NCBI GenBank assembly: GCA_965242525.1
Contig: OZ251459.1
Coordinates: 896,001-960,000, forward strand
From: an uncultured Candidatus Binatia bacterium
GTDB lineage: Bacteria; Desulfobacterota; Binatia; UBA9968; JAJDTQ01
Reading direction: 5' to 3'
DNA: 64,000 nt
Under the pieces are notes generated by a model. It was not told where the DNA came from. It saw only the letters and a program-made list of their open reading frames with translations, and ran no database searches. Positions 41,733 to 64,000 of the stretch are shown piece after piece. Made by a program: the position numbers and the translations under genes. How positions within the stretch are numbered: position 1 is the stretch's first letter; every line of letters starts with the position of its first letter.

Positions 41733-42299
41733 ATGTGGACGCTGCCGAACCTGCTGAGCCTCTTCCGCATCCTGCTGGTGCCGTTCCTGGCCTACCTGCT
41801 CGCGTTCACCGACCCAGTGTCGTGCGCGCTGGCCGCCCTGGTGTTCGTCGCCGCGTCCGTCACGGACATGCTGGACGGCTACCTCGCCCGCCGGAACGAG
41901 AGCGTGTCCGACTTCGGGAAACTGCTGGATCCCCTGGCCGACAAGCTGCTGGTGGTCACCGCGCTCATCATGCTGGTGGCCGTGGACCGGCCCGGGGACC
42001 TGGACGTGCCCGCGTGGCTGGTGGTGGTCATCGTCGCCCGGGAGGTGGCCGTGACGGTGCTGCGCGGCATCGCCCTGGGCGAGGGCGTGGTCATCCCCGC
42101 GGACGAGCTCGGCAAGTACAAGCTGCTGGCGCAGACCTTCGCTCTGGTGGGGCTGATGCTCCACTACCCGTACCTGGGCATCGACTTCTTCGTCGTGGGC
42201 ATGTACTTCCTCGTGCTCTCCACCGTCCTGGCCGTCTGGTCCGGAGTCCAGTACCACGTCCGTTTCCTGCGCCGGCTGCGCGCGGGGTCCCGGACATAG
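41733..42299 (+). CDS. pgsA: CDP-diacylglycerol--glycerol-3-phosphate 3-phosphatidyltransferase
   Basis: LPNLLS.FRI, TDMLDGYLARR...FGKLLDPLADKLL, RE, GKYK. Confidence 0.95.
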   Translation: MWTLPNLLSLFRILLVPFLAYLLAFTDPVSCALAALVFVAASVTDMLDGYLARRNESVSDFGKLLDPLADKLLVVTALIMLVAVDRPGDLDVPAWLVVVIVAREVAVTVLRGIALGEGVVIPADELGKYKLLAQTFALVGLMLHYPYLGIDFFVVGMYFLVLSTVLAVWSGVQYHVRFLRRLRAGSRT

Positions 42300-42485
42300 C
42301 CGCCGGCCTCCGGCCGCATGTTCGAACCTTCCGCACAACGACGGCTTGTGGTATCTTTCGACGATGGGCGGACGCGCAAGGATTACGGTCCGTTGCTTCC
42401 ACCTGCGCTGCATGAGGGCGGTCCGAACCCGTCCGTCAACCGGGCCCGGCCAGGCGCACGGAGACGGAGCCACGGGGACAGGATA

Positions 42486-44561
42486 GTGGGCGTGTCGCAA
42501 ACGTCGGTCTTTTTCCGGTCCGGACGCTTCCCCCTGTTGTTGCTGCTGCTCGCGCTGTCCACGTTGTTCCTGTGCAACGTGGACAAGGGATACCTCTACC
42601 GTCCCGGCGTCCATGACTTCCACACCATAATGAATCTGGCGGTAGCCGAGAACCTGTCGCCCGACCACCATTTCCGGTTGTTCCGCTGGCTGCGCCCGGG
42701 ACCGGACGGCGCCCCTGCATACGAGATGTACAGCCGCTTTCCCGTGGGCGGTTACGCACTCATCAAGCTCGCCATCCTCCCCTTCGGAAACGACTTGTCC
42801 GCCAGGATACTGGCTGCCCGAATGCTCATGTTGCTCCTGTTCAGCGCCGCAGCAGTCCTGGCCTTCCACTCCCTCGTCCGCATCACCTCCCGGGGCTGGG
42901 TCGCCCTGGCCGCCACCCTCGCGGCGTTCTCCTCCTACTACATGCTGTTCCACGGCGACTCGGTTTCCGTGGAGGTCAGCGTGGACCTGTTCGCGGTCCT
43001 GCTGGCCTTCCACGGCATGGTGGTGTTCGTGCAGGAGGGACGGTTCCGGCAGTTGCTGGCCAAGACCTTGGTTGCGCTGCTGCTGGGATGGCACGTGTAC
43101 GCCTTCCTGCTGCCGTTCATCCTCCTGGGTCTGGGGAGCGAGGCAGTCCGTGCCTGGAAGGACGGGACCGCGTTGTGGCCTCGTGTGCGCTCGGTGGGGG
43201 CGGCGGTGCTGCGTAGCCGCTACACGGCCCTTGGCCTGGCCGCGCTGCTGTTCGGCTCGGCGGTCCTGGGCTTCAACTTCGCCAACGAGTACGCCGCGTT
43301 CGGGGGAGAAACCGCGGTGACCGAACTGCCGTCGTTCGAGTCCATGCTCAGGCGCACCGGACTGGGCCAGGACTCTGCCTCCGTCGGATGGTGGCTGCAC
43401 TTCCTGCGAGGGCAGTTCTATCCTGTCCGCGTGGCGTCGGTTCCCCTGGTGCTGGCCGACTGGGGCGCCGGTTTGCGGGGGTGGTTCCCCTCGGTTCCCT
43501 ATTCGGGGTCCGGCTTTTCGGGGCCGGAGTTGTCGCTTTACCTCCTGTTGTTGCTGCTGTCGGTGGCCGCAGCCGCGGTCGTGGTCCGGCTTGCGAGGCG
43601 GCTGTTGCCCCGGCGGCGCCGAATGCCGTTGGCCATCCTTGGCCTGTCGGGGTTCTTCTGGGCCCTGCCCATGCGCCATAACGTCGTATATTTCGGCCAC
43701 GACCACGAGGCGGTGTACTACGTGGGCGTGCCGCTGGTGTTGTACTCACTGCTCCTTTTGTACGTCCACAAGCGCTGGGGGCATGGTCCGGTGGTCGGCT
43801 TCGCAGTTGCGGCGCTGCTCGCCTTCGTGGTCTCCGCCTTCCAGGTGTACCAGCGCTGGATCCCTGACGCCCGGGCGGCGGAGGTCCAGCGCACCGCCAT
43901 GTCCGAACTCGGGGCCATCCGCGAAACCACCCGGGGAAAGGTGGTCCTGGTCCTCGAATCCGTCGAACCGGGATGGCTTACGCAGGTCTCACGGCTGCAC
44001 TACGCATGGAATTACTACCTCGCCGGAAGCATCCCGATATACGCTCGCGACGTGGAAGCGGGCGCCCGCGCCGCGGACTTCATCGTCACCCCTGACCGCG
44101 TGGAGAGCGGCGCCCTGCTCACCCCCGGGAACGAACGGGTGTTCCTGTATGGTCTCGCAGGTATCGACGATCTGGTGGAGTCGTACCGGGCCGCTTACCG
44201 GCAGGTGGTGTCCTCCGGAGACCCTGCTGCGCACTCGCACTTCGACGTCTATCTCGGTGACGGCGTGCTGACCTTCGTCAGGGGACCTTGCGTCGGGGAG
44301 GATGTGAGATACTGGATCTTCCTGAGGGCGGTCCCGGAAGACCTGAAGGACCTGCCCGGGTGGCGCCGCCTGCAAGCCGGCTCCGACCACCTCGCCTTCC
44401 ACTCCACCGCGTTGCCCATGCTGTTCGAGGAGAAGTGTATGGCTGTCCTTCCACTCCCCGATTACCCCGTCTCCCGCATCAGGGCGAGACAGAAGCTGCC
44501 CCCATCCCGTGACGGTTCCCATCGACAGGGCTGGAACGTGGAGATACCGGCGGGCGGGTAG
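42486..44561 (+). CDS. GT-C-like (ArnT/PMT-type) polytopic membrane protein with C-terminal soluble domain, copy 1
   Basis: TM1, AENLS loop, YSRFP, ARML, about 10-11 TMs, HDHE, C-terminal domain with 2 Cys; start uncertain (GTG 42486; frame open from 42318). Confidence 0.75.
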   Translation: MGVSQTSVFFRSGRFPLLLLLLALSTLFLCNVDKGYLYRPGVHDFHTIMNLAVAENLSPDHHFRLFRWLRPGPDGAPAYEMYSRFPVGGYALIKLAILPFGNDLSARILAARMLMLLLFSAAAVLAFHSLVRITSRGWVALAATLAAFSSYYMLFHGDSVSVEVSVDLFAVLLAFHGMVVFVQEGRFRQLLAKTLVALLLGWHVYAFLLPFILLGLGSEAVRAWKDGTALWPRVRSVGAAVLRSRYTALGLAALLFGSAVLGFNFANEYAAFGGETAVTELPSFESMLRRTGLGQDSASVGWWLHFLRGQFYPVRVASVPLVLADWGAGLRGWFPSVPYSGSGFSGPELSLYLLLLLLSVAAAAVVVRLARRLLPRRRRMPLAILGLSGFFWALPMRHNVVYFGHDHEAVYYVGVPLVLYSLLLLYVHKRWGHGPVVGFAVAALLAFVVSAFQVYQRWIPDARAAEVQRTAMSELGAIRETTRGKVVLVLESVEPGWLTQVSRLHYAWNYYLAGSIPIYARDVEAGARAADFIVTPDRVESGALLTPGNERVFLYGLAGIDDLVESYRAAYRQVVSSGDPAAHSHFDVYLGDGVLTFVRGPCVGEDVRYWIFLRAVPEDLKDLPGWRRLQAGSDHLAFHSTALPMLFEEKCMAVLPLPDYPVSRIRARQKLPPSRDGSHRQGWNVEIPAGG

Positions 44562-44584
44562 TCCCTGCCGGCTAGAACCATCTC

Positions 44585-46747
44585 ATGGAGGGTACAGGAA
44601 AGTTATCCATGAAACGTCCATCTTCGAAAGGGGGAGACGGACCACCCGAGCACCCTTCCCGGAATTTCCGATCCGGACGCTTCCCCCTGTTGCTGCTGCT
44701 GCTCGCGCTGTCCACGTTGTTCCTGTGCAACCTGGACAAGGGATACTTGTACCGTCCCGGCGAGCATAACTTGAATACCGTAATCAACCTGACGATCGCC
44801 GAGAGCCTGTCGCCCGACCACCATTTCCGGTTGTTCCAGGGGTGGTACATGGAACCGGACGGCGCCCCCACGTACCATATGTACAGCCGCTTTCCCATGG
44901 GCGTATACGTACTCATCAAGCTCGCCATCCTCCCCTTCGGAAACGACCTGTCCGCCAAGATCCTGGCCGCCCGGATGCTCATGTTGCTCCTGTTCAGCGC
45001 CGCTGCGCTCCTGGCCTTCCACTCCCTCGCCCGCATCACTTCCCGGGGCTGGGTCGCCCTGGCCGCCACCCTCGCGGCGTTCTCCTCCTACTACATGCTG
45101 TTCTACGGCGACGCGGTTTACAACGAGGTCAGCGTGGACCTGTTCGCGGTCCTGCTGGCCTTCCACGGCATGGTGGTGTTCGTGCAGGAGGGACGGTTCC
45201 GGCAGTTGCTGGCCAAGACCTTGGTTGCGCTGCTGCTGGGGTGGCACGTGTACGCCTTCCTGCTGCCGTTCATCCTCCTGGGTCTGGGGAGCGAGGGGGT
45301 CCGTGCCTGGAAGGACGGAACTACGTTGTGGCCGCGTGTGCGTTCTGCCGGGGCAGCGGTGCTGCGCAGCCGCTATACGGCCCTTGGCCTGGCCGCGCTG
45401 CTGTTTGGCGCTGCGGTCCTGAGCTTCAACTTCGCCAACGAGTACACCGCGTTCGAGGGGCAGAAGCCAGTGACCGAACTGCCGTCGTTCCGGTCCATGC
45501 TCAGGCGCACCGGACTGGACCGGGACTCCGCCTCCGTCGGATGGTGGCTGCACTTCCTGCGAGGGCAGTTCTATCGTGTCCGCGTGGCCTCGGTTCCCCT
45601 GGCGTTGACCGACTGGGGCGCCGGTTTGCGGGGGCGGTTCCCCTCGGTTCCCTTTTCGGAGTCTGGCTTTTCGGGGCCGGAATTGTCGCTTTACCTCCTG
45701 TTGTTGCTGCTGGCGGTGGCCGCAGCCGCGGTCGTGGTCCGGCTTGCGGGGCCGCTGTTGGCCCGACGACACCACATGCTGTTGGCCGCCCTTGGCCTGT
45801 CGGGGTTCTTCTGGGCCCTGCCCATGCGTCATAACGTCGCGCCTCTCATCCACGACCACGAGGCGGTGTACTACGTGGGCGTGCCGCTGGTGTTGTACTC
45901 ACTGCTGCTGTTGTACGTCCACAAGCGCTGGGGGCATGGTCCGGTGGTCGGCTTCGCAGTTGCGGCGCTGCTCGCCTTCGTGGTCTCCGCCTTCCAGATG
46001 TACCAGCGATGGATACCTGACGCCCGGGCGGCGGAGATCCAGCGAACCGCCATGTCCGAACTCGGGGCCATCCGCGAAACCACCCGGGGGAAGGTGGTCC
46101 TGGTGATCGAGTCCGTCGAGCCGGGATGGTCCGCGCAGGTCACACGGCCGCGCCACGCATGGAGATACTACCTCGCCGGAAGCATCCTGATATACGCCCG
46201 CGACGTGGAGGCGGGCGCCCGCGCCGCGGACTTCATCGTTACCCGCGACCGGGTGGAGAGCGGCGCCCTGCTCACCCCCGGGAACGAACGGGTGTTCCTG
46301 TACGGTCCCGCAGGTATCGACGACCTGGTGGAGTCGTACCGGGCGGCTTACCGGCAGGTGGTGTCCTCCGGGGATCCTGCGGCGCGTTCCCACTTCGACG
46401 TCTATCTCGGCGACGAAGCGCTGACCTTCGTCAGGGAGCCTTGCGTCCGGGAGGATGTGAGATACGGGATGGTCATGAGCGCGGTTCCGGAAGACCTGAA
46501 GGACCTGCCCGGATGGCACCGCCTGCGATACGCCTCCGACCACCTCATCTTCAAGTCCACCGCGTTGCCCATGCTGTTCGATGGGAAGTGCATCGCCGTC
46601 CTTCCACTCCCCGATTACCCCGTCTCCCGCATCAGGGTAAAACAGGCGCTACACCGATCCCGTGACAGTTCCTATCGACGCGGCTGGAACGGCTGGAACG
46701 TGGAGATACGGGCGAGCCGGTGGCCGGGGCCATCCCATGGAGGGTAA
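44585..46747 (+). CDS. GT-C-like membrane protein, copy 2
   Basis: Intact 720-aa paralog; true start may be the downstream MKR ATG. Confidence 0.75.
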   Translation: MEGTGKLSMKRPSSKGGDGPPEHPSRNFRSGRFPLLLLLLALSTLFLCNLDKGYLYRPGEHNLNTVINLTIAESLSPDHHFRLFQGWYMEPDGAPTYHMYSRFPMGVYVLIKLAILPFGNDLSAKILAARMLMLLLFSAAALLAFHSLARITSRGWVALAATLAAFSSYYMLFYGDAVYNEVSVDLFAVLLAFHGMVVFVQEGRFRQLLAKTLVALLLGWHVYAFLLPFILLGLGSEGVRAWKDGTTLWPRVRSAGAAVLRSRYTALGLAALLFGAAVLSFNFANEYTAFEGQKPVTELPSFRSMLRRTGLDRDSASVGWWLHFLRGQFYRVRVASVPLALTDWGAGLRGRFPSVPFSESGFSGPELSLYLLLLLLAVAAAAVVVRLAGPLLARRHHMLLAALGLSGFFWALPMRHNVAPLIHDHEAVYYVGVPLVLYSLLLLYVHKRWGHGPVVGFAVAALLAFVVSAFQMYQRWIPDARAAEIQRTAMSELGAIRETTRGKVVLVIESVEPGWSAQVTRPRHAWRYYLAGSILIYARDVEAGARAADFIVTRDRVESGALLTPGNERVFLYGPAGIDDLVESYRAAYRQVVSSGDPAARSHFDVYLGDEALTFVREPCVREDVRYGMVMSAVPEDLKDLPGWHRLRYASDHLIFKSTALPMLFDGKCIAVLPLPDYPVSRIRVKQALHRSRDSSYRRGWNGWNVEIRASRWPGPSHGG

Positions 46748-48890
46748 AGGAAAGCTGTCCATGAAACGTCCATCCTCGAAAGGGGAGGACGGACCACCCG
46801 TGTACCCCTCCCGGAATCTCCGGTCCGGACGCTTCCCCCTGCTGTTGCTGCTGCTTGCGCTGTCCACGTTGTTCCTGTGCAACGTGGACAAGGGATACCT
46901 CTACCGTCCCAACCTCCATGACTTCAACACCATAAGGAACCTGGCGATGGCCGAGAACCTGTCGCCAGACCACCATTTCCGGTTGTTTCTCCAGCGGTTC
47001 ACGAGACCGGGCGGCGCCCCCACATACGAGATGTACAGCCGCTTTCCCGTGGGCGGATACGCACTCATCAAGCTCGCCATCCTCCCCTTCGGAAACGACC
47101 TGTCCGCCAGGATCCTCGCCGCCCGAATGCTCATGTTGCTGTTGTTCAGCGCCGCTGCGCTCCTGGCCTTCCACTCCCTCGTCCGCATCACCTCCCGGGG
47201 CTGGGTCGCCCTGGCCGCCACCCTTGCGGCGTTCTCCTCCTACTACATGCTGTTCTACGGCGACGTGGTTTCCGTGGAGGGCAGCGTGGACCTGTTCGCG
47301 GTCCTGCTGGCCTTCCACGGCATGGTGGTGTTCGTGCAGGAGGGACGGTTCCGGCAGTTGCTGGCCAGGACCTTCGTTGCGCTGCTGCTGGGATGGCACG
47401 TGTACGCCTTCCTGCTGCCGTTCCTCCTCCTGGGCCTGGGGAGCGAGGCAGTCCGGGCGTGGAAGGACGGAACCGCGGCGTGGTCCCGTGTGCGCTTCAC
47501 CGGGGCGGCGGTGCTGCGCAGCCGCTACACGGCCCTTGGCTTGGCCGCACTGCTGTTCGGCGCTGCGGTCCTGGGCTTCAACTTCGCCAACGAGTACACC
47601 GCGTTCGAGGGGCAGAAGCCGGTGACCGAACTGCCGTTGTTCGACTCCATCCTCATGCACACCGGACTGGACCGGGACTCCGTCTCCGCCGGATGGTGGC
47701 TGCAGTTCCTGCGAAAGCAGTTCTCTCGTGTCCGCATGGCGTCGGTTCCCCTGGTGCTGGCCGACTGGGGCGCCGGTTTGCGGGGATGGTTCCCCTCGGT
47801 TCCCTATTCGGGGTCCGGGTTTTCGGGGCCGGAGTTGTCGCTTTACCTCCTGTTGTTGCTGCTGGCGGTGGCCGCAGCCGCGGTGGTGGTCCGGCTTGCG
47901 AGGCGGTTGTTGCCCCGACGGCGCCAAATGCCGTTGGCCGTCCTTGGCCTGTCAGGGTTCTTCTGGGCCCTGCCCATGCGCCATACCGTCGTACACCTAT
48001 CCCACGACCATGAGGCGGTGTACTACGTGGGTGTTCCGCTGGTGTTGTACTCACTGCTCCTGTTGTACGTCCACAAGCGCTGGGGGCATGGTCCGGTGGT
48101 CGGCTTCGCAGTTGCGGCGCTGCTCGCCTTCGTGGTCTCCGCCTTCCAGATGTACCAGCGATGGATCCCTGACGCCCGGGTGGCCGAGGTCCAGCGCACC
48201 GTCATGTCCGAACTCGGGGCCATCCGCGAAACCACCCGGGGGAAGGTGGTCCTGGTCCTCGATTCCGTCGAGCCGGGATGGCTCACGCAGGTCAGACCGC
48301 CGCCCGCATGGAATTACTACTTCGCGGGAAGCATCCTGACATACGCCCGCGACGTGGAAGCGGGCGCCCGCGCCGCGGACTTCATCGTCACCCCTGACCG
48401 GGTGGAGAGCGGCGCCCTGCTCACCCCCGGGAACGAATGGATGTTCCTGTATGGTCCCGCAAGTATCGACGACTTGGTGGAGTCGTACCGGGCCGTTTAC
48501 CGGCGGGTGGTGTCCTCCGGGGACCCTGTGGCGCGCTCCCACTTCGACGTCTATCTCGGTGACGACGCGCTGACCTTCGTCAGGGAGCCTTGCGTCCGGG
48601 AGGATGTGAACCGCGGGGTCACCCTGAGGGTGGTCCCGGAAGACCTGAAGGACATGCCCATATGGCGCCGCCTGCTGCAATACATCTCCGACCACGTCGT
48701 CTTCCAGTCCACCCAGTTGCCCATGCTGTTCGAGGAGAAGTGTATCGCTGTGTTTCTATTCCCCGATTTCCCCGTCTCCCGCATCATGGCGATACAGAAT
48801 CCGCGCCTATCCCGTGACAGTTCGCATCGACACGGCTGGAAAGTAGAGATACCGGCGAGCCGGTGGCCGGAGCCATCCCATGGGGGGTAA
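46737..48890 (+). CDS. GT-C-like membrane protein, copy 3
   Basis: Intact paralog; start set at the conserved MEG leader. Confidence 0.75.
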   Translation: MEGKGKLSMKRPSSKGEDGPPVYPSRNLRSGRFPLLLLLLALSTLFLCNVDKGYLYRPNLHDFNTIRNLAMAENLSPDHHFRLFLQRFTRPGGAPTYEMYSRFPVGGYALIKLAILPFGNDLSARILAARMLMLLLFSAAALLAFHSLVRITSRGWVALAATLAAFSSYYMLFYGDVVSVEGSVDLFAVLLAFHGMVVFVQEGRFRQLLARTFVALLLGWHVYAFLLPFLLLGLGSEAVRAWKDGTAAWSRVRFTGAAVLRSRYTALGLAALLFGAAVLGFNFANEYTAFEGQKPVTELPLFDSILMHTGLDRDSVSAGWWLQFLRKQFSRVRMASVPLVLADWGAGLRGWFPSVPYSGSGFSGPELSLYLLLLLLAVAAAAVVVRLARRLLPRRRQMPLAVLGLSGFFWALPMRHTVVHLSHDHEAVYYVGVPLVLYSLLLLYVHKRWGHGPVVGFAVAALLAFVVSAFQMYQRWIPDARVAEVQRTVMSELGAIRETTRGKVVLVLDSVEPGWLTQVRPPPAWNYYFAGSILTYARDVEAGARAADFIVTPDRVESGALLTPGNEWMFLYGPASIDDLVESYRAVYRRVVSSGDPVARSHFDVYLGDDALTFVREPCVREDVNRGVTLRVVPEDLKDMPIWRRLLQYISDHVVFQSTQLPMLFEEKCIAVFLFPDFPVSRIMAIQNPRLSRDSSHRHGWKVEIPASRWPEPSHGG

Positions 48891-51039
48891 AGGAGAGAAG
48901 CTGTCCGTGAAACGTCCATCTTCGAAAGGGGGAGACCGACCACCCGAGTACCCCTCCCGGAATTTCCGCTCCGGACGCTTCCCCCTGCTGTTGCTGCTGC
49001 TCGCGCTGTCCACGTTGTTCCTGTGCAACGTGGACAAGGGATACCTCTACCGTCGCGGCTTCCATGACTTCAACACCCTGATGAACTTGGCGATGGCCGA
49101 GAACCTGTCGGCCGACCACAATTTCCGGTTGTTCCGCTGGCTGCGCCCGGGACCGGACGGCGTCCCCACATACGAGATGTACAGCCGCTTTCCCGTGGGC
49201 GGATACGCACTCATCAAGCTCGCCATCCTCCCCTTCGGAAACGACCTGTCCGCCAGGATCCTCGCCGCCCGAATGCTCATGTTGCTGTTGTTCAGCGCCG
49301 CTGCGCTCCTGGCCTTCCACTCCCTCGCCCGCATCACCTCCCGCCACTGGGTCGCGCTGGCCGCCACCCTCATGGCGTTCTCCTCCTACTACATGCTGTT
49401 CCACGGCGACGCGGTTTGCGTGGAGTACAGTGTGGACCTGTTCGCGGTCCTGCTGGCCTTCCACGGCATGGTGGTGTTCGTGCAGGAGGGACGGTTCCGG
49501 CAGTTGCTGGCCAAGACCTTGGTTGCGCTGCTGCTGGGATGGCACGTGTACGCCTTCCTGCTGCCGTTCATCCTCCTGGGTCTGGGGAGCGAGGCAGTCC
49601 GTGCCTGGAAGGACGGAACCGCGGTGTGGCTGCGCTCCACCGGGGCGGCGGTGCTGCGCAGCCGCTACACGGCCCTTGGCTTGGCCGCGCTGCTGTTCGG
49701 CGCGACCGTCCTGGGCTTCAACTTCGCCAACGAGTACACCGCGTTCGAGGGACAGAAGCCGGTGACCGAACTGCCGTTGTTCGACTCCATCCTCAGGCGC
49801 ACCGGACTGAACCGGGACTCCGCCTCCACCGGATGGTGGCTGCACTTCCTGCGAGGACAGTTCACTCGTGTCCGCGTGGCGTCGGTTCCCCTGGCGCTGA
49901 CACACTGGGGCGCCGGTTTGCGGGGGTGGTTCCCCTCGGTTCCCCTTTCGGGGTCCGGCCTTTCGGGGCCGGAGTTGTCGCTTTACCTCCTGTCGTTGCT
50001 GCTGGCGGTGGCCGCAGCCGCGGTCGTGGTCCGGCTTGCGAGGCGGTTGTTACCCCGACGGCGCCGAATGCCGTTCGCCGTCCTTGGCCTGTCGGGGTTT
50101 TTCTGGGCCCTGCCCATGCGCCATAACGTCGTAGACCTCGGCCACGACCATGAGGCCCTGTACTACGTGGGCGTCCCGCTGGTGTTGTACTCACTGCTGC
50201 TGCTGTACGTCCACCAGCGCTGGGGGCAGGCTCCGGTGGTCGGCCTCGCAGTTGCGGCGCTGCTCGCCTTCGTGGTCTCTGCCTTCCAGATGTACCAACG
50301 CTGGATCCCTGACGCCCGGGCGGCGGAGGTCCAGCGCACCGCCATGTCCGAACTCGGGGCCATCCGCGAAACCACCCGGGGAAAGGTGGTCCTGGTCCTC
50401 GATTCCGTCGAGCCGGGATGGCTCACGCAGGTCACGCGGCCGCGCCACGCATGGAGTTACTACCTCGCTGGAAGCATCCCGATATATCCCCGCGACGTGG
50501 AAGCGGGCGCCCGCGCCGCGGACTTCATCGTCACCCCTGACCGTGTGGAGAGCGGCGCCCTGCTCACCCCCGGGAACGAACGGGTGTTCCTGTATGGTCC
50601 CGCAGGTATCGACGACCTGGTGGAGTCGTACCGGGCCGCTTACCGGCAGGTGGTGTCCTCCGGGGACCCTGTGGCGCGCTCCCACTTCGACGTCTATCTC
50701 GGTGACGAAGCGCTGACCTTCGTCAGGGAGCCTTGCGTCCGGGAGGATGTGAGAAACGAGATCCTCTTGAGGGCGGTCCCGGAAGACCTGAAAGACCTGC
50801 CCGGATGGCGCCGCCTGCAATTCGGCTCCGACCACCTCGTCTTCGAATCCATCAGGTTTCCCAAGCTGTTCGAGGAGAAGTGCATGGCTGTCCTTCCACT
50901 CCCCGATTACCCCGTCTCCCGCATCAGGGCGGCACAGAAGCGACACCCATCCCGCATCGAGGTGGGACAGGCGCTACACCGGTCCCGTGACAAGTTATAT
51001 CGACAGGGCTGGAACGTGGAGATACCGGCGGGCGGGTAG
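48880..51039 (+). CDS. GT-C-like membrane protein, copy 4
   Basis: Intact 719-aa paralog. Confidence 0.75.
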   Translation: MGGKGEKLSVKRPSSKGGDRPPEYPSRNFRSGRFPLLLLLLALSTLFLCNVDKGYLYRRGFHDFNTLMNLAMAENLSADHNFRLFRWLRPGPDGVPTYEMYSRFPVGGYALIKLAILPFGNDLSARILAARMLMLLLFSAAALLAFHSLARITSRHWVALAATLMAFSSYYMLFHGDAVCVEYSVDLFAVLLAFHGMVVFVQEGRFRQLLAKTLVALLLGWHVYAFLLPFILLGLGSEAVRAWKDGTAVWLRSTGAAVLRSRYTALGLAALLFGATVLGFNFANEYTAFEGQKPVTELPLFDSILRRTGLNRDSASTGWWLHFLRGQFTRVRVASVPLALTHWGAGLRGWFPSVPLSGSGLSGPELSLYLLSLLLAVAAAAVVVRLARRLLPRRRRMPFAVLGLSGFFWALPMRHNVVDLGHDHEALYYVGVPLVLYSLLLLYVHQRWGQAPVVGLAVAALLAFVVSAFQMYQRWIPDARAAEVQRTAMSELGAIRETTRGKVVLVLDSVEPGWLTQVTRPRHAWSYYLAGSIPIYPRDVEAGARAADFIVTPDRVESGALLTPGNERVFLYGPAGIDDLVESYRAAYRQVVSSGDPVARSHFDVYLGDEALTFVREPCVREDVRNEILLRAVPEDLKDLPGWRRLQFGSDHLVFESIRFPKLFEEKCMAVLPLPDYPVSRIRAAQKRHPSRIEVGQALHRSRDKLYRQGWNVEIPAGG

Positions 51040-51062
51040 TCCCTGCCGGCCGGGGCCATCCC

Positions 51063-53219: not shown

Positions 53220-53242
53220 TCCCTGCCGGCCGGGGCCATCCC

Positions 53243-57533: not shown

Positions 57534-57556
57534 TCCCCGCCGGCCAGAGCCATCCC

Positions 57557-59668
57557 ATGGAGGGTAAAGGAAAGTTGTCCATGAAACGTCGATCTTCGGA
57601 AGGAGGGGACAGACCACCCGAGTACCCCTCGCGGAATTTCCGGTCCGGAGGCTTCCCCCTGCTGTTGCTGCTGCTCGCGCTGTCCACGTTGTTCCTGTGC
57701 AACCTGGACAAGGGATACCTCTACCGTCCCAACCTCCATGACTTCAACACCGTAAGGAACCTGACGCTGGCCGAGAACCTGTCGCCCGACCACAATTTCC
57801 GGTTGTTCCTCCACGGATTCAGAGGATCGGGCGACGCCTCTACGTACTATATGTACAGCCGCTTTCCCGTGGGTGGATACGTATTCATCAAGCTCGCCAT
57901 CCTCCCCTTCGGAAACGACTTGTCCGCCAGTATCCTCGCGGCCCGAATGCTCATGTTGCTCCTGTTCAGCGCCGCAGCAGTCCTGGCGTTCCACTCCCTC
58001 GCCCGCCTCACTTCCCGGGGCTGGGTCGCCCTGGCCGCCACCCTCGCGGCGTTCTCCTCCTACTACATGCTGTTCCACGGCGACTCGGTCTCCGTGGAGG
58101 TCAGCGTGGACCTGTTCGCGGTCCTGCTGGCCTTCCACGGCATGGTGGTGTTCGTGCAGGAGGGACGGTTCCGGCAGTTGCTGGTCAAGACCTTGGTTGC
58201 GCTGCTGCTGGGGTGGCACGTGTACGCCTTCCTGTCGCCGTTCATCCTCCTGGGCCTGGGGAGCGAGGCAGTCCGTGCCTGGAAGGACGGGACCGCGCTG
58301 TGGCCTCGTGTGCGCTCGGTGGGGGCGGCGGTGCTGCGCAGCCGCTACACGGCCCTTGGCCTGGCTGCGCTGCTGTTCGGCGCGGCGGTCCTGGGCTTCA
58401 ACTTCGCCAACGAGTACGCCGCGTTCGGAGGAGAGACCGCGGTGACGGAACTGCCGTTGTTCGACTCCATGCTCAGGCGCACCGGACTGGGCCAGGACTC
58501 CGCCTCCGCCGGATGGTGGCTGCACTTCCTGCGAGGGCAGTTCTCTCGTGTCCGCATGGCGTCGGTTCCCCTGGTGCTGGCCCACTGGGGCGCCGGTTTG
58601 CGGGAGTGGTTCCCTTCGGTTCCCTATTCGGAGTCCGGCTTTTCGGGGCCGGAGTTGTCGCTTTACCTCCTGCTGCTGCTGGCGGTGGCCGCAGCCGCGG
58701 TCGTGGTCCGTCTCGCGGGGCGGCTGTTACCCCGGCGGCGCCAAGTGCTGTTCACCGTTCTTGGCCTGTCGGGGTTCTTCTGGGCCCTGCCCATGCGCCA
58801 TAACGTCGTAGACTTCGCCCACGACCATGAGGCGGTGTACTACGTGGGCGTGCCACTGGTGTTGTATTCACTGTTCCTGTTGTACGTCCACAAGCGCTGG
58901 GGGCATGGTCCGGTGGTCGGCTTCGCAGTTGCGGCGCTGCTCGCCTTCGTGGTCTCCGCCTTCCAGATGTACCAGCGCTGGGTCCCTGACGCCCGGGCGG
59001 CCGAGGTCCAGCGCACCGCCATGTCCGAACTTGGGGCCATCCGCGAAACCACCCGGGGAAAGGTGGTCCTGGTGATCGAGTCCGTCGAGCCGGGACGGTC
59101 CGCGCAGGTCTCACAGCCGCGCTACGCATGGAGTTACTACCTCGCCGGAAGCATCCCGACATACGCCCGCGACGTGGAAGCGGACGCCCGCGCGGCGGAC
59201 TTCATCGTCGCCCATGACCGGGTGGAGAGCGGCGCCCTGCTCACCCCCGGGAACGAATGGGTGTTCCTGTATGGTTCCGCAGGTATCGACGACCTGGTGG
59301 AGTCGTACCGGGCGGCTTACCGGCGGGTGGTGTCCTCCGGGGACCCTGTGGCGCGCTCCCACTTCGACGTCTATCTCGGTGACGAAGCGCTGACCTTCGT
59401 CAGGGGGCCTTGCGTCCGGGAGGATGTGAACCGCAAGATCTTCCTGAGGGCGGTCCCGGAAGACCTGAAGGACCTGCCCGGATGGAGCCGCCTGCAATAC
59501 GGCTCCGACCACCACATCTTCCAGTCCATCAGGGTGCCCATGCTGTTCGAGGAGAAGTGTATGGCTGTCCTTCCACTCCCCGATTACCCCGTCTCCCGCA
59601 TCAGGGCGGCACAGAAGCGACACCCTTCCCATGACGGCTGGAACGTGGAGATACGGGCGAGCCGGTAG
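57557..59668 (+). CDS. GT-C-like membrane protein, copy 8
   Basis: Intact 703-aa paralog. Confidence 0.75.
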   Translation: MEGKGKLSMKRRSSEGGDRPPEYPSRNFRSGGFPLLLLLLALSTLFLCNLDKGYLYRPNLHDFNTVRNLTLAENLSPDHNFRLFLHGFRGSGDASTYYMYSRFPVGGYVFIKLAILPFGNDLSASILAARMLMLLLFSAAAVLAFHSLARLTSRGWVALAATLAAFSSYYMLFHGDSVSVEVSVDLFAVLLAFHGMVVFVQEGRFRQLLVKTLVALLLGWHVYAFLSPFILLGLGSEAVRAWKDGTALWPRVRSVGAAVLRSRYTALGLAALLFGAAVLGFNFANEYAAFGGETAVTELPLFDSMLRRTGLGQDSASAGWWLHFLRGQFSRVRMASVPLVLAHWGAGLREWFPSVPYSESGFSGPELSLYLLLLLAVAAAAVVVRLAGRLLPRRRQVLFTVLGLSGFFWALPMRHNVVDFAHDHEAVYYVGVPLVLYSLFLLYVHKRWGHGPVVGFAVAALLAFVVSAFQMYQRWVPDARAAEVQRTAMSELGAIRETTRGKVVLVIESVEPGRSAQVSQPRYAWSYYLAGSIPTYARDVEADARAADFIVAHDRVESGALLTPGNEWVFLYGSAGIDDLVESYRAAYRRVVSSGDPVARSHFDVYLGDEALTFVRGPCVREDVNRKIFLRAVPEDLKDLPGWSRLQYGSDHHIFQSIRVPMLFEEKCMAVLPLPDYPVSRIRAAQKRHPSHDGWNVEIRASR

Positions 59669-59691
59669 TCCCTGCCGGCCGGGGCCATCCC

Positions 59692-61824
59692 ATGGAGGGT
59701 AAAGGAGAGAATCTGTCCATGAAACGTCCATCCTCGAAAGGTGGAGACGGACCACCCGTGTACCCATCCGGGAATTTCCGGTCCGGACGCTTCCCCCTGT
59801 TGTTGCTGCTGCTCGCGCTGTCCACGTTGTTCCTGTGCAACGTGGACAAGGGATACCTCTACCGTCCCGGCCTGCATAACTGGAGTACCATAAAGAACTT
59901 GGCGCTGGCCGAGAACCTGTCGCCCGACCACCATTTCCGGTTGTTCCTCCAGCGGACCACGGGGCCGGACGGCGCCCCTGCATACGAGATGTACAGCCGC
60001 TTTCCCATGGGCGTATATGCACTCATCAAGCTCGCCATCCTTCCTTTCGGAAACGACCTCTCCGCCAGGATACTCTCTGCCCGAATGCTCATGTTGCTCC
60101 TGTTCAGCGGTGCTGCGCTCCTGGCCTTCCACTCCCTCGTCCGCATCACTTCCCGGGGCTGGGTCGCCCTGGCCGCCACCCTCATGGCGTTCTCCTCCTA
60201 CTACATGCTGCTCTACGGCGACGCGGTTTCCGTGGAGGTCAGCGTGGATCTGTTCGCGGTCCTGCTGGCCTTCCACGGCATGGTGGTGTTCGTGCAGGAG
60301 GGACGGTTCCGGCAGTTGCTGGCCAAGACCTTGGTTGCGCTGCTGCTGGGATGGCACGTGTACGCCTTCCTGTCGCCGTTCATCCTCCTGGGCCTGGGGA
60401 GCGAGGCAGTCCGTGCCTGGAAGGACGGGACCGCGCTGTGGCCTCGTGTGCGCTCGGTGGGGGTGGCGGTGCTGCGCAGCCGCTACACGGCCCTTGGCCT
60501 GGCTGCGCTGCTGTTCGGCGCGGCGGTCCTGGGCTTCAACTTCGCCAACGAGTACGCCGCGTTCGGAGGCGAGACCGCGGTGACCGAACTGCCGTCGTTC
60601 CAGTCCATGCTCAGGCGCACCGGACTGGACCGGGACTCCGCCTCCGCCGGATGGTGGATGGGTTTCCTGCGAGGGCAGTTCTATCGTGTCCGCATGGCGT
60701 CGGTTCCCCTGGCGCTGGCCGACTGGGGCGCCGGTTTGCGGGGGTGGTTCCCCTCGGTTCCCTATTCGGGGTCCGGCTTGTCGGGGCCGGAGTTGTCGCT
60801 TTACTTCCTGTTGTTGCTGGCGGCGGTGGCCGCAGCCGCGGTCGTGGTCCGGCTTGCGAGGCGGCTGTTGCCCCGGAGTCGCCGCATGCCGTTCGCCGCC
60901 CTTGGCCTGTCAGGTTTCTTCTGGGCCCTGCTCATGCGCAATAACGTCGTACACTTTAGCCACGACCATGAAGCGGTGTACTACGTGGGGGTCCCGCTGG
61001 TGTTGTACTCACTGCTCCTGCTGTACGTCCACCAGCGCTGGGGGCATCGTCCGGTGGTGGGGCTCGCATTTGCGGCGCTGCTCGCCTTCGTGGTCTCCGC
61101 CTTCCAGATGTACCAACGCTGGGTCCCTGACGCCCGGGCGGCCGAGGTCCAGCGAACCGCCATGGCAGAAATCGGGGCCATTCGCGAAACCACCCGGGGA
61201 AAGGTGATCCTGGTCATCGAGTCCGTCGAGCCGGGACGGTCCGCACAGGTCACGCAGCCGCGCCACGCATGGAATTACTACCTCGCCGGAAGCATCCTGA
61301 CATACTCCCGCGACGTGGAATCGGGCGCCCGCGCCGCGGACTTCATCGTCACCCGCGACCGGGTGGAGAGCGGCGCCCTGCTCACCCCGGGGAACGAACG
61401 GGTGTTCCTGTATGGTCCCGCAGGTATCGACGACCTGGTGGAGTCGTACCGAGCAGCTTACCGGCAGGCGGCGTCCTCCGGGGCCCCTGCGGCGCGTTCC
61501 CACTTCGACGTCTATCTCGGCGACGACGCGCTGACCTTCGTCAGGGAGCCCTGCATCCGGGAGGACGTGAGAAACGAGATCTTCCTGATGGCGGTTCCGG
61601 AAGACCTGAATGACCTGCCCGGATGGCGCCGCCTGCGATACGGCTCCGACCACCTCGTCTTCCATTCCACCAAGGCGCCCATGCTGTTCGATGAGAAGTG
61701 TATCGCTGTCCTTCCACTCCCCGACTACCCCGTCTCCCGCATCAGGGTGAGACAGAAGCGAGGCCCATCCCGTGACAGTTCGCATCGACACGGCTGGAAG
61801 GTAGAGATACCGGCGAGCCGGTAG
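59692..61824 (+). CDS. GT-C-like membrane protein, copy 9
   Basis: Intact 710-aa paralog. Confidence 0.75.
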   Translation: MEGKGENLSMKRPSSKGGDGPPVYPSGNFRSGRFPLLLLLLALSTLFLCNVDKGYLYRPGLHNWSTIKNLALAENLSPDHHFRLFLQRTTGPDGAPAYEMYSRFPMGVYALIKLAILPFGNDLSARILSARMLMLLLFSGAALLAFHSLVRITSRGWVALAATLMAFSSYYMLLYGDAVSVEVSVDLFAVLLAFHGMVVFVQEGRFRQLLAKTLVALLLGWHVYAFLSPFILLGLGSEAVRAWKDGTALWPRVRSVGVAVLRSRYTALGLAALLFGAAVLGFNFANEYAAFGGETAVTELPSFQSMLRRTGLDRDSASAGWWMGFLRGQFYRVRMASVPLALADWGAGLRGWFPSVPYSGSGLSGPELSLYFLLLLAAVAAAAVVVRLARRLLPRSRRMPFAALGLSGFFWALLMRNNVVHFSHDHEAVYYVGVPLVLYSLLLLYVHQRWGHRPVVGLAFAALLAFVVSAFQMYQRWVPDARAAEVQRTAMAEIGAIRETTRGKVILVIESVEPGRSAQVTQPRHAWNYYLAGSILTYSRDVESGARAADFIVTRDRVESGALLTPGNERVFLYGPAGIDDLVESYRAAYRQAASSGAPAARSHFDVYLGDDALTFVREPCIREDVRNEIFLMAVPEDLNDLPGWRRLRYGSDHLVFHSTKAPMLFDEKCIAVLPLPDYPVSRIRVRQKRGPSRDSSHRHGWKVEIPASR

Positions 61825-61847
61825 TCCTTGTCGGCCAGGGCCGTCCC

Positions 61848-64000
61848 ATGCAGGGTGAAGGAGGGAAGCTGTCCATGGAATATCAATCTTCGAAAGGGGA
61901 AGACGACCACCCGTGCACCCCCTCCTCGCGGAATTTCCGGTCCGGACGCTTCCCCCTGCTGTTGCTGCTGCTCGCGCTGTCCACGTTGTTCCTGTGCAAC
62001 GTGGACAAGGGATACCTCTACCGTCCCAACCTCCATGACTTCAACACCATAATGAATCTGGCGGCAGCCGAGAACCTGTCACCCGACCACAATTTCCGGT
62101 TGTTCGTCCCGCAAATCATGGAACCGGGCGGCGCCCACGCATATATGTACAGCCGCTTTCCCGTGGGTGGATACGTATTCATCAAGCTCGCCATCCTCCC
62201 CTTCGGAAACGACTTGTCCGCCAGTATCCTCGCGGCCCGAATGCTCATGTTGCTCCTGTTCAGCGGTGCTGCGCTCCTGGCCTTCCACTCCCTCGCCCGC
62301 ATCACTTCCCGGGGCTGGGTCGCCCTGGCCGCCACCCTCGCGGCGTTCTCCTCCTACTACATGCTGTTCCACGGCGACTCGGTCTCCGTGGAGGTCAGCG
62401 TGGACCTGTTCGCGGTCCTGCTGGCCTTCCACGGCATGGTGGTGTTCGTGCAGGAGGGACGGTTCCGGCAGTTGCTGGTCAAGACCTTGGTTGCGCTGCT
62501 GCTGGGGTGGCACGTGTACGCCTTCCTGTCGCCGTTCATCCTCCTGGGCCTGGGGAGCGAGGCAGTCCGTGCCTGGAAGGACGGGACCGCGCTGTGGCCT
62601 CGTGTGCGCTCGGTGGGGGCGGCGGTGCTGCGCAGCCGCTACACGGCCCTTGGCCTGGCTGCGCTGCTGTTCGGCGCGACGGTCCTGGGCTTCAACTTCG
62701 CCAACGAGTACGCCGCGTTCGGAGGCGAGACCGCGGTGACCGAACTGCCGTCGTTCCAGTCCATGCTCAGGCGCACCGGACTGGACCGGGACTCCGCCTC
62801 CGCCGGATGGTGGATGGGTTTCCTGCGAGGGCAGTTCTATCGTGTCCGCATGGCGTCGGTTCCCCTGGCGTTGACCGACTGGGGCGCCGGTTTGCGGGGG
62901 TGGTTCCCCTCGGTTCCCTATTCGGGGTCCGGCCTTTCGGGGCCGGAGTTGTCGCTTTACCTCCTGTTGTTGCTGCTGGCGGTGGCCGCAGCCGCGGTCG
63001 TGGTCCGGCTTGCGAGGCGGCTGTTGCCCCGGCGGCGTCGAATGCCGTTGGCCGTCCTTGGCCTGTCGGGGTTCTTCTGGGCCCTGCCCATGCGCCATAA
63101 CGTTGCGGACTTCGCCCACGACCATGAGGCGGTGTACTACGTGGGCGTGCCGCTGGTGTTGTACTCACTGCTCCTGTTGTACGTCCACAAGCGCTGGGGG
63201 CATGGTCCGGTGGTCGGCTTCGCAGTTGCGGCGCTGCTCGCCTTCGTGGTCTCCGCCTTCCAGATGTACCAACGCTGGATACCTGACGCCCGGGCGGCGG
63301 AGGTCCAGCGCACCGCCATGGCCGAACTCGGGGCCATCCGCGAAACCACCCGGGGAAAGGTGGTCCTGATCCTCAAGGCCGTCGAGCCGGGATGGCTCAT
63401 GCAGGTCTCACAGCCGCGCCACGAATGGAATTACTACTTCGCCGGAAGCATCCTGACATACGCCCGCGACGTGGAAGCGGGCGCCCGGGCCGCGGACTTC
63501 ATCGTCACCCGCGACCGTGTGGAGAGCGGCGCCCTGCTCACCCCCGGGAACGAACGGGTGTTCCTGTACGGTTCCGCAGGTATCGGCGACCTGGTGGAGT
63601 CGTACCGGGCCGCTTACCGGCAGGTGGTGTCCTCCGGGGCCCCTGTGGCGCGCTCCCACTTCGACGTCTATCTCGGCGACGAAGCGCTGACCTTCGTCAG
63701 GGAGCCTTGCGTCGGGGAGGATGTGAGATACTGGATCGTCATGAGCGCGGTCCCGGAAGACCTGAAGGACCTGCCCGGATGGCTCCGCCTGCGATACCAC
63801 CCCGGCCACCCCATCTTGAAGTCCGGCACGTTTCCCATACTGTTCGAGGAGAAGTGCATCGCTGTCCTTCCGCTCCCCGATTACCCCGTTTCCCGCATCA
63901 AGGTGAGACAGTCGCTACGCCGGTCCCGTGATAGCTCCCATCCACACGGCTGGAAGGTAGAGATACCGGCGAGCCGGTGGCCGGTGCCATCCCATGGAGG
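61848..64000 (+). CDS. GT-C-like membrane protein, copy 10 (stop just beyond window; absent from ORF track)
   Basis: MQGEGGKLSMEYQSSKGEDD...RNFRSGRFPLLLL ... GWKVEIPASRWPVPSHG. Confidence 0.75.
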   Translation, partial: MQGEGGKLSMEYQSSKGEDDHPCTPSSRNFRSGRFPLLLLLLALSTLFLCNVDKGYLYRPNLHDFNTIMNLAAAENLSPDHNFRLFVPQIMEPGGAHAYMYSRFPVGGYVFIKLAILPFGNDLSASILAARMLMLLLFSGAALLAFHSLARITSRGWVALAATLAAFSSYYMLFHGDSVSVEVSVDLFAVLLAFHGMVVFVQEGRFRQLLVKTLVALLLGWHVYAFLSPFILLGLGSEAVRAWKDGTALWPRVRSVGAAVLRSRYTALGLAALLFGATVLGFNFANEYAAFGGETAVTELPSFQSMLRRTGLDRDSASAGWWMGFLRGQFYRVRMASVPLALTDWGAGLRGWFPSVPYSGSGLSGPELSLYLLLLLLAVAAAAVVVRLARRLLPRRRRMPLAVLGLSGFFWALPMRHNVADFAHDHEAVYYVGVPLVLYSLLLLYVHKRWGHGPVVGFAVAALLAFVVSAFQMYQRWIPDARAAEVQRTAMAELGAIRETTRGKVVLILKAVEPGWLMQVSQPRHEWNYYFAGSILTYARDVEAGARAADFIVTRDRVESGALLTPGNERVFLYGSAGIGDLVESYRAAYRQVVSSGAPVARSHFDVYLGDEALTFVREPCVGEDVRYWIVMSAVPEDLKDLPGWLRLRYHPGHPILKSGTFPILFEEKCIAVLPLPDYPVSRIKVRQSLRRSRDSSHPHGWKVEIPASRWPVPSHG

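Follow-up and report, generated by a model that had tools for sequence, protein, structure and literature searches.

A tandem array of putative GT-C glycosyltransferases with hypervariable windows in an uncultured Candidatus Binatia bacterium

GT-C enzymes use polyprenyl-phosphate-linked sugars as donors and glycosylate acceptors on the periplasmic side of the membrane. One of them, ArnT, is normally single-copy and is not known to have hypervariable windows. Mycobacterial GT-C paralogs are anciently diverged and few in number, and they are not known to form near-identical tandem mosaics. Three-component systems, in which a synthase and a flippase accompany a serotype-specific GT-C enzyme, are an established pattern as the excerpted text of PMC11194591 presents them. 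By comparison, a 64,000-nucleotide stretch of the genome of an uncultured Candidatus Binatia bacterium (the window, G000:C1:896001-960000, where G000 is the host genome and C1 the contig) carries most of a head-to-tail array of genes encoding ~720 aa proteins with a predicted GT-C fold. The amino acid differences between the copies are concentrated in short hypervariable (HV) windows on a conserved scaffold. The explanation considered best, at a probability of roughly 0.55, is that the array is a repertoire of periplasmic-face GT-C glycosyltransferases that differ in acceptor specificity.

Copies of the array and the clustering of their variation

Ten plus-strand open reading frames (ORFs) of 703–747 aa tile positions 42318–63998 of the window, and the tenth runs past the window's end. 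An eleventh copy (c18) was located by tblastn at G000:C1:959994-962159, just past the window, which brings the array to 11 head-to-tail copies. An earlier note, made from the letters of this DNA alone, had counted 10; that count is corrected to 11, and tblastn also placed 17 more full-length copies, at 64–71% identity, at dispersed positions on the chromosome, for a family total of ~28. All 11 array copies have open reading frames. The tandem copies are 84–88% identical to copy 1, with a mean column identity of 87%, and the nucleotide divergence between array copies is ~12%. The copies within the window, placed by ORF and alignment unless stated otherwise, are as follows.

42318..44561, + strand: copy 1 (c08), with an atypical N-terminus whose true start is uncertain
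44585..46747, + strand: copy 2 (c09, 720 aa), whose residue numbers are used throughout and which served for the structure model and the searches
46737..48890, + strand: copy 3 (c10), whose start overlaps the read-through tail of copy 2
48880..51039, + strand: copy 4 (c11)
51063..53219, + strand: copy 5 (c12)
53243..55393, + strand: copy 6 (c13)
55383..57533, + strand: copy 7 (c14), with a 7-residue tandem duplication within the first variable window (alignment)
57557..59668, + strand: copy 8 (c15)
59692..61824, + strand: copy 9 (c16)
61848..64000, + strand: copy 10 (c17), running past the window's end (ORF)

Copy 1 lacks the MEGKGKLSMKRPSS leader that is common to the other array copies. Junctions between copies are of two types, either a 24-nt spacer or an 11-nt overlap where the TAG stop reads TGG. 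The codon that follows '...ASR' is TAG or TGG by junction (e.g. 44561-44585 and 46737-46747), and at TGG junctions the frame continues through 'WPGPSHGG', overlapping the next start by 11 nt. A scan between copies returned no promoter-like sites, where 1.8 were expected by chance, and 11 terminator-like sites, where 14.1 were expected by chance.

Minimum changes were counted per codon column, independently of any tree, for the 11 copies over 692 aligned codons. The array totals were 383 nonsynonymous and 236 synonymous changes. A 5-codon scan identified nine segments; together they comprise 92 codons (13%) but account for 167 of the 383 nonsynonymous changes (44%). For 8-codon windows, the nonsynonymous sums had a variance of 18.0, compared to 6.2 +/- 0.7 after permutation of columns, and a value this high was reached in none of 2000 permutations. 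Synonymous changes were only mildly clustered (27/2000 permutations). These results confirm the earlier observation that variation is concentrated in short segments on a conserved scaffold, and every motif string quoted in support of it is present in the copies. About eight segments had been proposed; the nine of the scan include an added 4-codon MLLA segment and a C-terminal tail split in two. The third of the proposed windows (DSVSVEV; HV3) carries 10 nonsynonymous vs 2 synonymous changes in 10 codons and falls below the scan threshold. On copy 2, the windows lie as follows.

44762..44797, + strand: HV1, residues 60-71, predicted juxtamembrane helix in the first outside loop
44831..44878, + strand: HV2, residues 83-98, predicted beta-hairpin in the first outside loop
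45101..45130, + strand: HV3, residues 173-182, short outside loop with conserved D176 and E181 interspersed among its variable residues
45830..45856, + strand: HV4, residues 416-424, outside loop directly preceding conserved H423 and E426
46127..46162, + strand: HV5, residues 515-526, loop of the periplasmic domain, modeled with low confidence
46457..46483, + strand: HV6, residues 625-633, strand of the C-terminal beta-sandwich
46520..46573, + strand: HV7 (the window after GSDH), residues 646-663, loop and strand of the beta-sandwich
46631..46681, + strand: HV8, residues 683-699, C-terminal tail with 11-residue repeat insertions in some copies

Small in-frame repeats were seen within two of these windows. 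In copy 7 (55383-57533), the duplication in HV1 is a 21-nt in-frame tandem repeat (NLTDFDT/NLHDFNT), and in the tails of copies 4, 5, and 11 an 11-residue SRI...H/R unit is repeated. A different pattern was observed in a transmembrane (TM) block of ~90 nt (the region of window positions 45101-45220, core codons 157-185), which is nearly without synonymous differences among the 11 copies. The proportion of synonymous differences (pS) is 0.00–0.03 in this block vs a gene average of 0.12, which suggests either very recent homogenization or constraint at the nucleotide level.

Among the dispersed paralogs, variation is likewise greatest in the hypervariable windows. Copy 23 was left out of all family alignments since it was not matched by the anchor motif, and 27 of the 28 genome copies were used. 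Eleven phylogenetically independent pairs of paralogs outside the array, four from the host and seven from a congener (G036), were compared with the windows as defined on the array. In all 11 pairs, representing two genomes, amino acid differences were more frequent in the windows (14–56%) than in the scaffold (7–19%).

The array is a recombination mosaic. It contains 268 informative sites, 60% of site pairs are incompatible, and none of 1000 permutations gave a PHI statistic as low. Between successive 150-nt blocks, each copy switches its nearest partner, and window alleles are common to different subsets of copies in each window. In the case of HV2, alleles are shared at an apparent period of three (c08/c11/c14, c09/c12, and c10/c13/c16), a hint that a unit of three genes was duplicated; the junction types are not arranged with that period. 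For HV1 to HV7, the nearest allele to every array allele is that of another array copy (with ties in HV5), and the dispersed copies are 2–21 mismatches away. This proximity indicates that the diversity arose within the array and is reshuffled there, and that it was not imported from silent cassettes.

Short variable blocks on a conserved scaffold are also the pattern produced by dedicated diversification machines, namely diversity-generating retroelements and the import of silent cassettes as in pilE/pilS. Such a machine can hardly be credited here. A profile search of the 99%-complete genome found no RVT_1 reverse transcriptase, and the variable positions show no adenine bias (38/57 A, 51/100 C, 44/71 G, and 24/48 T positions vary); these two results exclude a diversity-generating retroelement. 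Cassette import is opposed by the nearest-allele comparison above, in which the array alleles of HV1 to HV7 were at least as close to array copies as to dispersed ones. In addition, copy-2 alleles were found unchanged in public sequencing runs. Contigs of run X7 contain pieces specific to copy 2 in HV2 and HV7 with 0 differences, and those of X8 contain the HV7 piece as well; the two runs belong to different studies, and one examined run may be the assembly's source.

These runs also bear on whether the mosaic could be an artefact of assembly, with repeats from several strains chimerically joined. The assembly is of the metagenome type, in 7 contigs, the array amounts to a 24-kb repeat, and short-read contigs break on that repeat; the contigs of the public runs are short and broken into pieces of 70–180 nt, in which paralogs cross-map and letter variants are indistinguishable from cross-mapping. 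Nevertheless, the artefact is very unlikely. The ~12% nucleotide divergence is enough to tell the copies apart, every copy is open, and contigs spanning head-to-tail junctions were found in all four public runs examined. Together, the unchanged copy-2 pieces and the junction contigs argue against an assembly artefact as well as against ongoing mutation of a somatic type. Moreover, G036 is a closed single-contig genome and shows the same family with the same variable windows. Runs X1-X5 are labelled 'sponge metagenome', a weak hint of habitat.

Predicted fold and membrane topology of the proteins

Array copies match no Pfam, NCBIfam, or PADLOC model. Neither PMT_2 (PF13231) nor PMT (PF02366) matched any of three window copies at E<=1. 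In a genome scan, the best family copies, two dispersed ones, scored 22.7 and 17.8 bits against PMT_2, under its cut-off of 26.1, and two of 12 distant relatives scored 21.0 and 18.4 bits on PMT, under its cut-off of 22.7. A profile search of the PDB returned a sole match, to an RND transporter over 85 hydrophobic residues, which was treated as spurious.

An AlphaFold (AF2) model of copy 2 was built on 51 diverse family members. The full-length model has a pLDDT of 85.6 and a pTM of 0.89. Foldseek returned 28 PDB matches at E<=0.001, with a probability of 1.00 to STT3, PglB, ArnT, ALG, and Emb structures, and the matches listed are all GT-C enzymes (STT3/PglB/AglB, ALG12/ALG9, ArnT, AftD, DPY19, and Emb). 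The top match by VIA-align was ArnT (5f15), with Z 21.8 and a root-mean-square deviation of 5.0 over 429 residues, aligning model residues 29-576 with chain residues 26-568. ALG12, Pmt4, AglB, and STT3 followed at Z 18–19, and 56 chains in total reached Z>=8. The nearest ESM Atlas clusters, named RgtA/B/C/D-like and ArnT-family, scored 0.97 and are regarded as a lead only. On the basis of the model, the protein is predicted to have a GT-C glycosyltransferase fold which is closest to that of ArnT. Because hhalign gave no match between the TM domain and the ArnT-like protein of the genome and the hidden Markov model (HMM) scores are below threshold, the family is filed under GT-C by its predicted fold and not under PMT_2.

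Polar residues that are conserved across the 51 members were identified in the numbering of copy 2. Aspartate is present at position 121 in 41 members and at 176 in 45, and glutamate at 286 in 48. Position 51, which lies three residues past the predicted TM1, is D in 37 members and E in 5; position 181 is E in 41 and D in 9; position 423 is H in 43; and position 426 is E in 39 and D in 4. All seven residues (D51, D121, D176, E181, E286, H423, and E426) are invariant in the 11 array copies. The earlier note had singled out an invariant HDHE motif. Family-wide, only its first and last residues (H423 and E426) are conserved, and the D and second H are not. The two cysteines of the C-terminal domain that the note also named are each at least 90% conserved in the family, and they would fit an oxidizing compartment.

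When the C-terminal 136 residues were modeled alone, a beta-sandwich was obtained with a pLDDT of 85.4. Its best structural matches, at Z 7.4–5.8, were the FN3 domains of cytokine receptors, Ig-like domains of GH2 enzymes, and CBM-like domains; no chain reached Z>=8, and Foldseek found no match for this domain at E<=0.001. The model suggests that the domain resembles an Ig/FN3-like beta-sandwich. By hhalign, this C-terminal module aligns with a PMT_2 protein from the same genome with a probability of 99.5% (E 2e-22, 121 columns). Two PMT_2 proteins of the genome (C1:1171765-1173990, equivalent to L034:1195-3420, and C1:3995696-3997780) carry the module twice in tandem, and they pass the PMT_2 cut-off at 34 and 33.4 bits. 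A search for proteins made up of the C-terminal domain alone returned 17 unnamed proteins, mostly fragments, without Pfam domains. Many longer relatives (800–1050 aa) match the query in 2–4 stretches, and judging from these alignments the module may be repeated in them. A distant relative, P0225 (a metagenome protein of 1099 aa), is extended at its N-terminus by ~400 aa that give a sub-threshold match to GT87 (22.4 bits, cut-off 25), and it may be a fusion of two GT-C-type modules.

Membrane topology was derived from the secondary structure of the model, hydrophobic segments, and the positive-inside rule, which gave 11 TM segments with the N-terminus inside and the C-terminus outside. Averaged over the 51 members, the predicted inside loops have net charges of +0.7 to +3.4, and the outside loops have net charges of -6.4 to +0.4. 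This layout agrees with ArnT-type architecture and fits the GT-C fold match. All 32 sites with at least four residues among the 11 copies (hot sites) are in predicted outside segments. They account for 32 of 421 outside residues vs none of 271 TM and inside residues (Fisher p=8e-8), and vs none of 51 inside-loop residues (p=0.023). Likewise, 88 of the 92 window codons are predicted to be outside. HV1 and HV2 are on the first outside loop, after D51, and four windows are on the periplasmic domain, three of these on the beta-sandwich. The variable windows are thus predicted to face the extracytoplasmic side, as the earlier note had proposed; the hot sites and the loop charges both agree with that proposal. 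It had also likened the windows to the complementarity-determining loops of antibodies, an analogy that has some basis in the four windows on the periplasmic domain, the last 136 residues of which model as an Ig/FN3-like beta-sandwich.

Tests for selection on the hypervariable windows

The earlier note proposed that the variable windows are probably under diversifying selection. GC bias at third codon positions is strong in this genome and the windows were picked by nonsynonymous counts, so simple counts are prone to bias. By the Nei-Gojobori method, the proportion of nonsynonymous differences exceeded pS in several windows, and a count-based omega (the ratio of nonsynonymous to synonymous rates) of 1.49 was obtained for windows vs 0.39 for the scaffold; taken alone, these counts would point to diversifying selection. 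With the codon-frequency model GY+F3X4, omega in the array was 1.07 for the pooled windows and 0.32 for the scaffold, and a count test with model-based expectations gave 1.09 for the pooled windows (p=0.35). Single EL1 windows ranged from 0.62 to 1.66, all non-significant, and the two together gave 0.75 (p=0.26). Only HV7 and the pool of HV6 and HV7 exceeded an omega of 1 in the array. In HV7, 35 nonsynonymous changes stand against a single synonymous one (omega ~6, with p=0.022 uncorrected for the eight windows; omega 4.1, p=0.10 by maximum likelihood), and pooling it with HV6, the EDV window, gave 2.7–3.1 (p=0.02–0.03). Invariant codons of HV7 do not differ even at their third positions, and adjacent codons differ at first and second positions. 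Single-tree omega estimates were made with iqtree, and the measured recombination makes single-tree tests unreliable.

The 11 independent paralog pairs gave values that depend on how the synonymous rate (dS) is taken. With one gene-wide dS per pair, omega was 1.47 for the windows (twice the log-likelihood difference, 30.9; p=3e-8) and 0.33 for the scaffold. With the local dS of the windows, omega was 0.75, which is below 1 at p=0.017. Similarly, 31 hot sites in these pairs gave 2.28 against the gene-wide dS (p=8e-18) and 1.23 against the local dS (p=0.14). The two sets of values differ because synonymous divergence is ~1.5x higher within the windows. This elevation can reflect old alleles that were shielded from homogenization, as under balancing selection, or a local effect of mutation or alignment. 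A test of dN/dS based on orthologs was ruled out, since only 2 of 27 host copies have a reciprocal best match in G036 and the best cross-genome identity is 68–80%.

On balance, the windows are judged to evolve close to the neutral rate and three- to fourfold faster than the scaffold. Diversifying selection is therefore not supported in the form in which it was claimed, the pooled windows of the array being at 1.07–1.09. Positive selection is plausible, foremost for HV6 and HV7, but is not demonstrated. The open frames of all 11 copies, together with the scaffold omega of 0.32, indicate that the copies are under purifying selection.

An omega near 1 is what would be expected if the copies were functionally equivalent, either retained for gene dosage or too recently amplified to have decayed, with the windows as neutral surface loops and the scaffold kept by gene conversion and purifying selection. 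This explanation deserves serious consideration, although it is unlikely to be the correct one. The pooled array estimates, which are not different from 1, the non-significant values for the EL1 windows, and the independent pairs at local dS are all in its favor. The windows also hold indels and small tandem duplications, and several of them are modeled with low confidence, as expected of flexible loops. However, redundancy is hard to square with a scaffold omega of ~0.3 and with open frames in the 11 tandem copies and in nearly all of the ~28 host and ~40 G036 copies. It also leaves the excess in HV7, with its flanking invariant codons conserved perfectly at third positions, and the hot sites at 2.3x the gene-wide synonymous rate. 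Furthermore, variable residues are interleaved with and adjoin the most conserved polar residues, and inside loops, though also loops, are without hot sites.

The strongest nonsynonymous excess lies on the Ig/FN3-like beta-sandwich and not beside the putative catalytic loop. This is one of the points that favor a non-enzymatic role, in which proteins on a GT-C-like scaffold would act in surface binding or recognition (of host, phage, or kin), with the Ig-like domain and outer loops binding variable ligands. The absence of a glycosyltransferase HMM match at cut-off agrees with such a role, as does the patchy distribution with lineage-specific expansion described below, which is expected of an interaction family. 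A purely binding function is nonetheless improbable, in that the acidic and histidine residues typical of GT-C outer loops are conserved over the 51 diverse members and invariant in the array. The anchor of ~11 TM segments would place the protein in the inner membrane, and in a diderm cell the periplasmic domain would not reach the surface. In addition, PADLOC gave no defence-system match for either of the two copies tested.

Genomic setting, distribution, and comparison with known systems

The array sits between a pgsA-like gene and a tRNA gene, and a second expanded family is present elsewhere in the window. Coordinates preceded by C1 are those of the contig.

41733..42299, + strand: pgsA-like CDP-alcohol phosphatidyltransferase, the upstream boundary of the array (Pfam PF01066, E 4.6e-41)
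C1:962272-962348: tRNA-Gly(GCC), downstream of copy 11
6889..9401, + strand: two adjacent copies of an SGNH/GDSL-like family (~418 aa; tblastn matches at C1:902994-905359)

In all four congeners examined that lack the family, the pgsA and tRNA-Gly(GCC) genes are only 51–145 nt apart, so that the array represents an insertion into a variable site. Congener G036 carries other DNA between pgsA and tRNA-Gly, and the junction seems to be an insertion hot spot. Downstream of pgsA in G036 (L028:1-729, - strand) is a different ORF, which by eye resembles the specificity subunit of a type I restriction-modification system.

Besides its ~28 full-length copies, the host genome has one broken copy and two loci with the C-terminal domain only. 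Within the genus, two of 27 other genomes match: G036, at ~40 places, and G002, with the C-terminal domain only. A full-length copy is therefore absent from 26 of the 27 congeners. Both the host and G036 genomes are 4 Mb in size. From the ~40 places in G036, 29 copies were extracted from 20 regions, and in a tree with 27 host copies they fall into largely separate clades by genome. The expansions are lineage-specific, or the copies have been homogenized within each genome. Among genomes of the same order, none of 12 matched at E<=1e-20, and in a sample of the phylum two of 120 other genomes matched at E<=1e-30. In G149, of the same class and another family, a first look gave 65 candidates; of nine scored, at least two are full-length and many have the C-terminal domain only, and this genome may represent another independent expansion.

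More broadly, the family is large. Among 8000 candidates scored, >1192 proteins match at E<=0.001, and at 50% identity 1520 clusters match at E<=0.001, 440 of these at E<=1e-30. None of the best 120 relatives listed is named or has a Pfam domain. In a pattern scan, the named relatives were from uncultured Candidatus Binatia, with one at 42% identity labelled Latescibacterota. No description of the family was found in the literature searched, which covered Binatia/Binatota, bacterial GT-C paralogs, and glycosyltransferase multigene families of sponge symbionts.

The SGNH-like family was traced through recurrent neighbors of the dispersed GT-C-like copies. Its matches to Lipase_GDSL_2 and AlgX are below curated cut-offs. 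There are ~17 copies in the host genome, nine of them within 10 kb of a GT-C-like copy; these nine include the two in the window and a tandem array of five beside copy c27. Apart from the pair in the window, members lie at G000:C1:3079526-3085926 and at about 10 other loci. G000 and G036 are the only genomes of the genus with this family, and they are also the two that hold the GT-C-like family. Because these two may be sister species, the co-occurrence may reflect a single evolutionary event.

In the explanation considered best, each copy would encode a GT-C glycosyltransferase that spans the inner membrane many times and is similar to ArnT and PMT. The TM scaffold and the seven conserved acidic and histidine residues would form shared machinery for catalysis and donor binding, and the hypervariable windows would be the acceptor-facing surface. 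The 11 tandem copies, and the ~28 genome-wide, would then make up a repertoire of acceptor specificities. The array was inserted and expanded between pgsA and tRNA-Gly and diversified in place, and gene conversion or unequal exchange between its members keeps reshuffling it. A candidate lipid-sugar synthase of the DPMS/GtrA type is encoded in the genome and speaks in favor of this explanation. The results above show the predicted fold class, the clustering of variation and its predicted outside position, the mosaic, the insertion site, and the lineage-specific expansion. We infer the enzymatic activity, the donor, the acceptor and its contact with the windows, and the retention of copies for different specificities.

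Several observations weigh against such a repertoire. No copy scores at the cut-off of any curated glycosyltransferase model. Since hhalign did not align the TM domain with the ArnT-like or PMT_2 proteins that the genome encodes, membership in GT-C rests on the predicted fold, for which the Foldseek TM-scores are only 0.3–0.4. The topology is based on charge bias and secondary structure and not on coordinates. No glycan-synthesis genes, flippase, or lipid-sugar synthase adjoin the array. Finally, with a window omega of ~1 in the array and 0.75 at local dS, the pattern could arise from unconstrained loops, and specificity need not differ between copies.

A broader version would combine dozens of GT-C enzymes, variable in their Ig-like domain and in acceptor loops likened to CDRs, with acyl-modifying enzymes of the SGNH type in a combinatorial diversification of envelope glycans or glycoproteins, in a bacterium that is probably host-associated. 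Gene conversion within tandem arrays would feed new specificities into this germline-encoded 'glycan repertoire' and allow escape from phages or from recognition by a host. This version is speculative and rather doubtful.

The potential importance of the array depends in part on which explanation holds. In any case, it represents a large family without a curated model, with the predicted fold of lipid-donor glycosyltransferases and with unusual genomic behavior. Should acceptor specificity differ between the copies, the array would offer a natural experiment on the specificity loops of GT-C enzymes; which loops set specificity is an open question for ArnT, PMT, and oligosaccharyltransferase-type enzymes. 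It would also indicate that an uncultured lineage diversifies its envelope in this way. The SGNH-like family, being co-distributed, suggests that the system includes a second activity that modifies the product. If the windows are merely unconstrained loops, the array is still a clean case of concerted evolution in a bacterial tandem array.

Among known systems, families in which gene conversion likewise accompanies localized hypervariability, such as the peptide-binding region of the MHC and var and vsg-type families, offer an analogy only; the raised synonymous divergence within the variable windows belongs to this comparison as well. Unlike in those families, an omega above 1 is not robustly shown for the array, and its proteins resemble inner-membrane enzymes and not surface antigens.

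The best structural match is ArnT (4-amino-4-deoxy-L-arabinose transferase, GT83; PDB 5f15 and 5ezm), with an alignment that spans the TM domain completely and the periplasmic domain in its first part. As in ArnT, the N-terminus is predicted to be inside and the C-terminal domain outside, and conserved acidic residues are present in outer loops. The array family differs from ArnT in that the window copies have no PMT_2 match at cut-off and no hhalign match to the genome's ArnT-like protein, and in that it has an extra C-terminal Ig-like beta-sandwich. The PMT_2 proteins of the same genome share the C-terminal module with the array family, although their TM domains pass the PMT_2 cut-off, on which the array family reaches at most 22.7 bits, and do not align with its TM domain by profile.

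In concept, the array resembles GtrC-type systems, in which, in the excerpted text of PMC11194591, the lipid-linked donor is shared and the sequence of the GT-C enzyme sets acceptor specificity. GtrC-type enzymes are encoded in gtrABC-type operons with a synthase and a flippase, neither of which adjoins the array; the only GtrA/DPMS-type gene of the genome is far from it. GtrC variants are spread over strains and phages, whereas the array family has 11 tandem copies, and ~28 in total, in one genome. Several GT-C paralogs per genome, acting on different acceptors, are also found among the mycobacterial Emb, Aft, and PimE enzymes. Some of these have extra periplasmic domains that are carbohydrate-binding-like, and the mycobacterial GT-C enzymes are among the fold matches of the array protein, at Z 11–16 by VIA-align.

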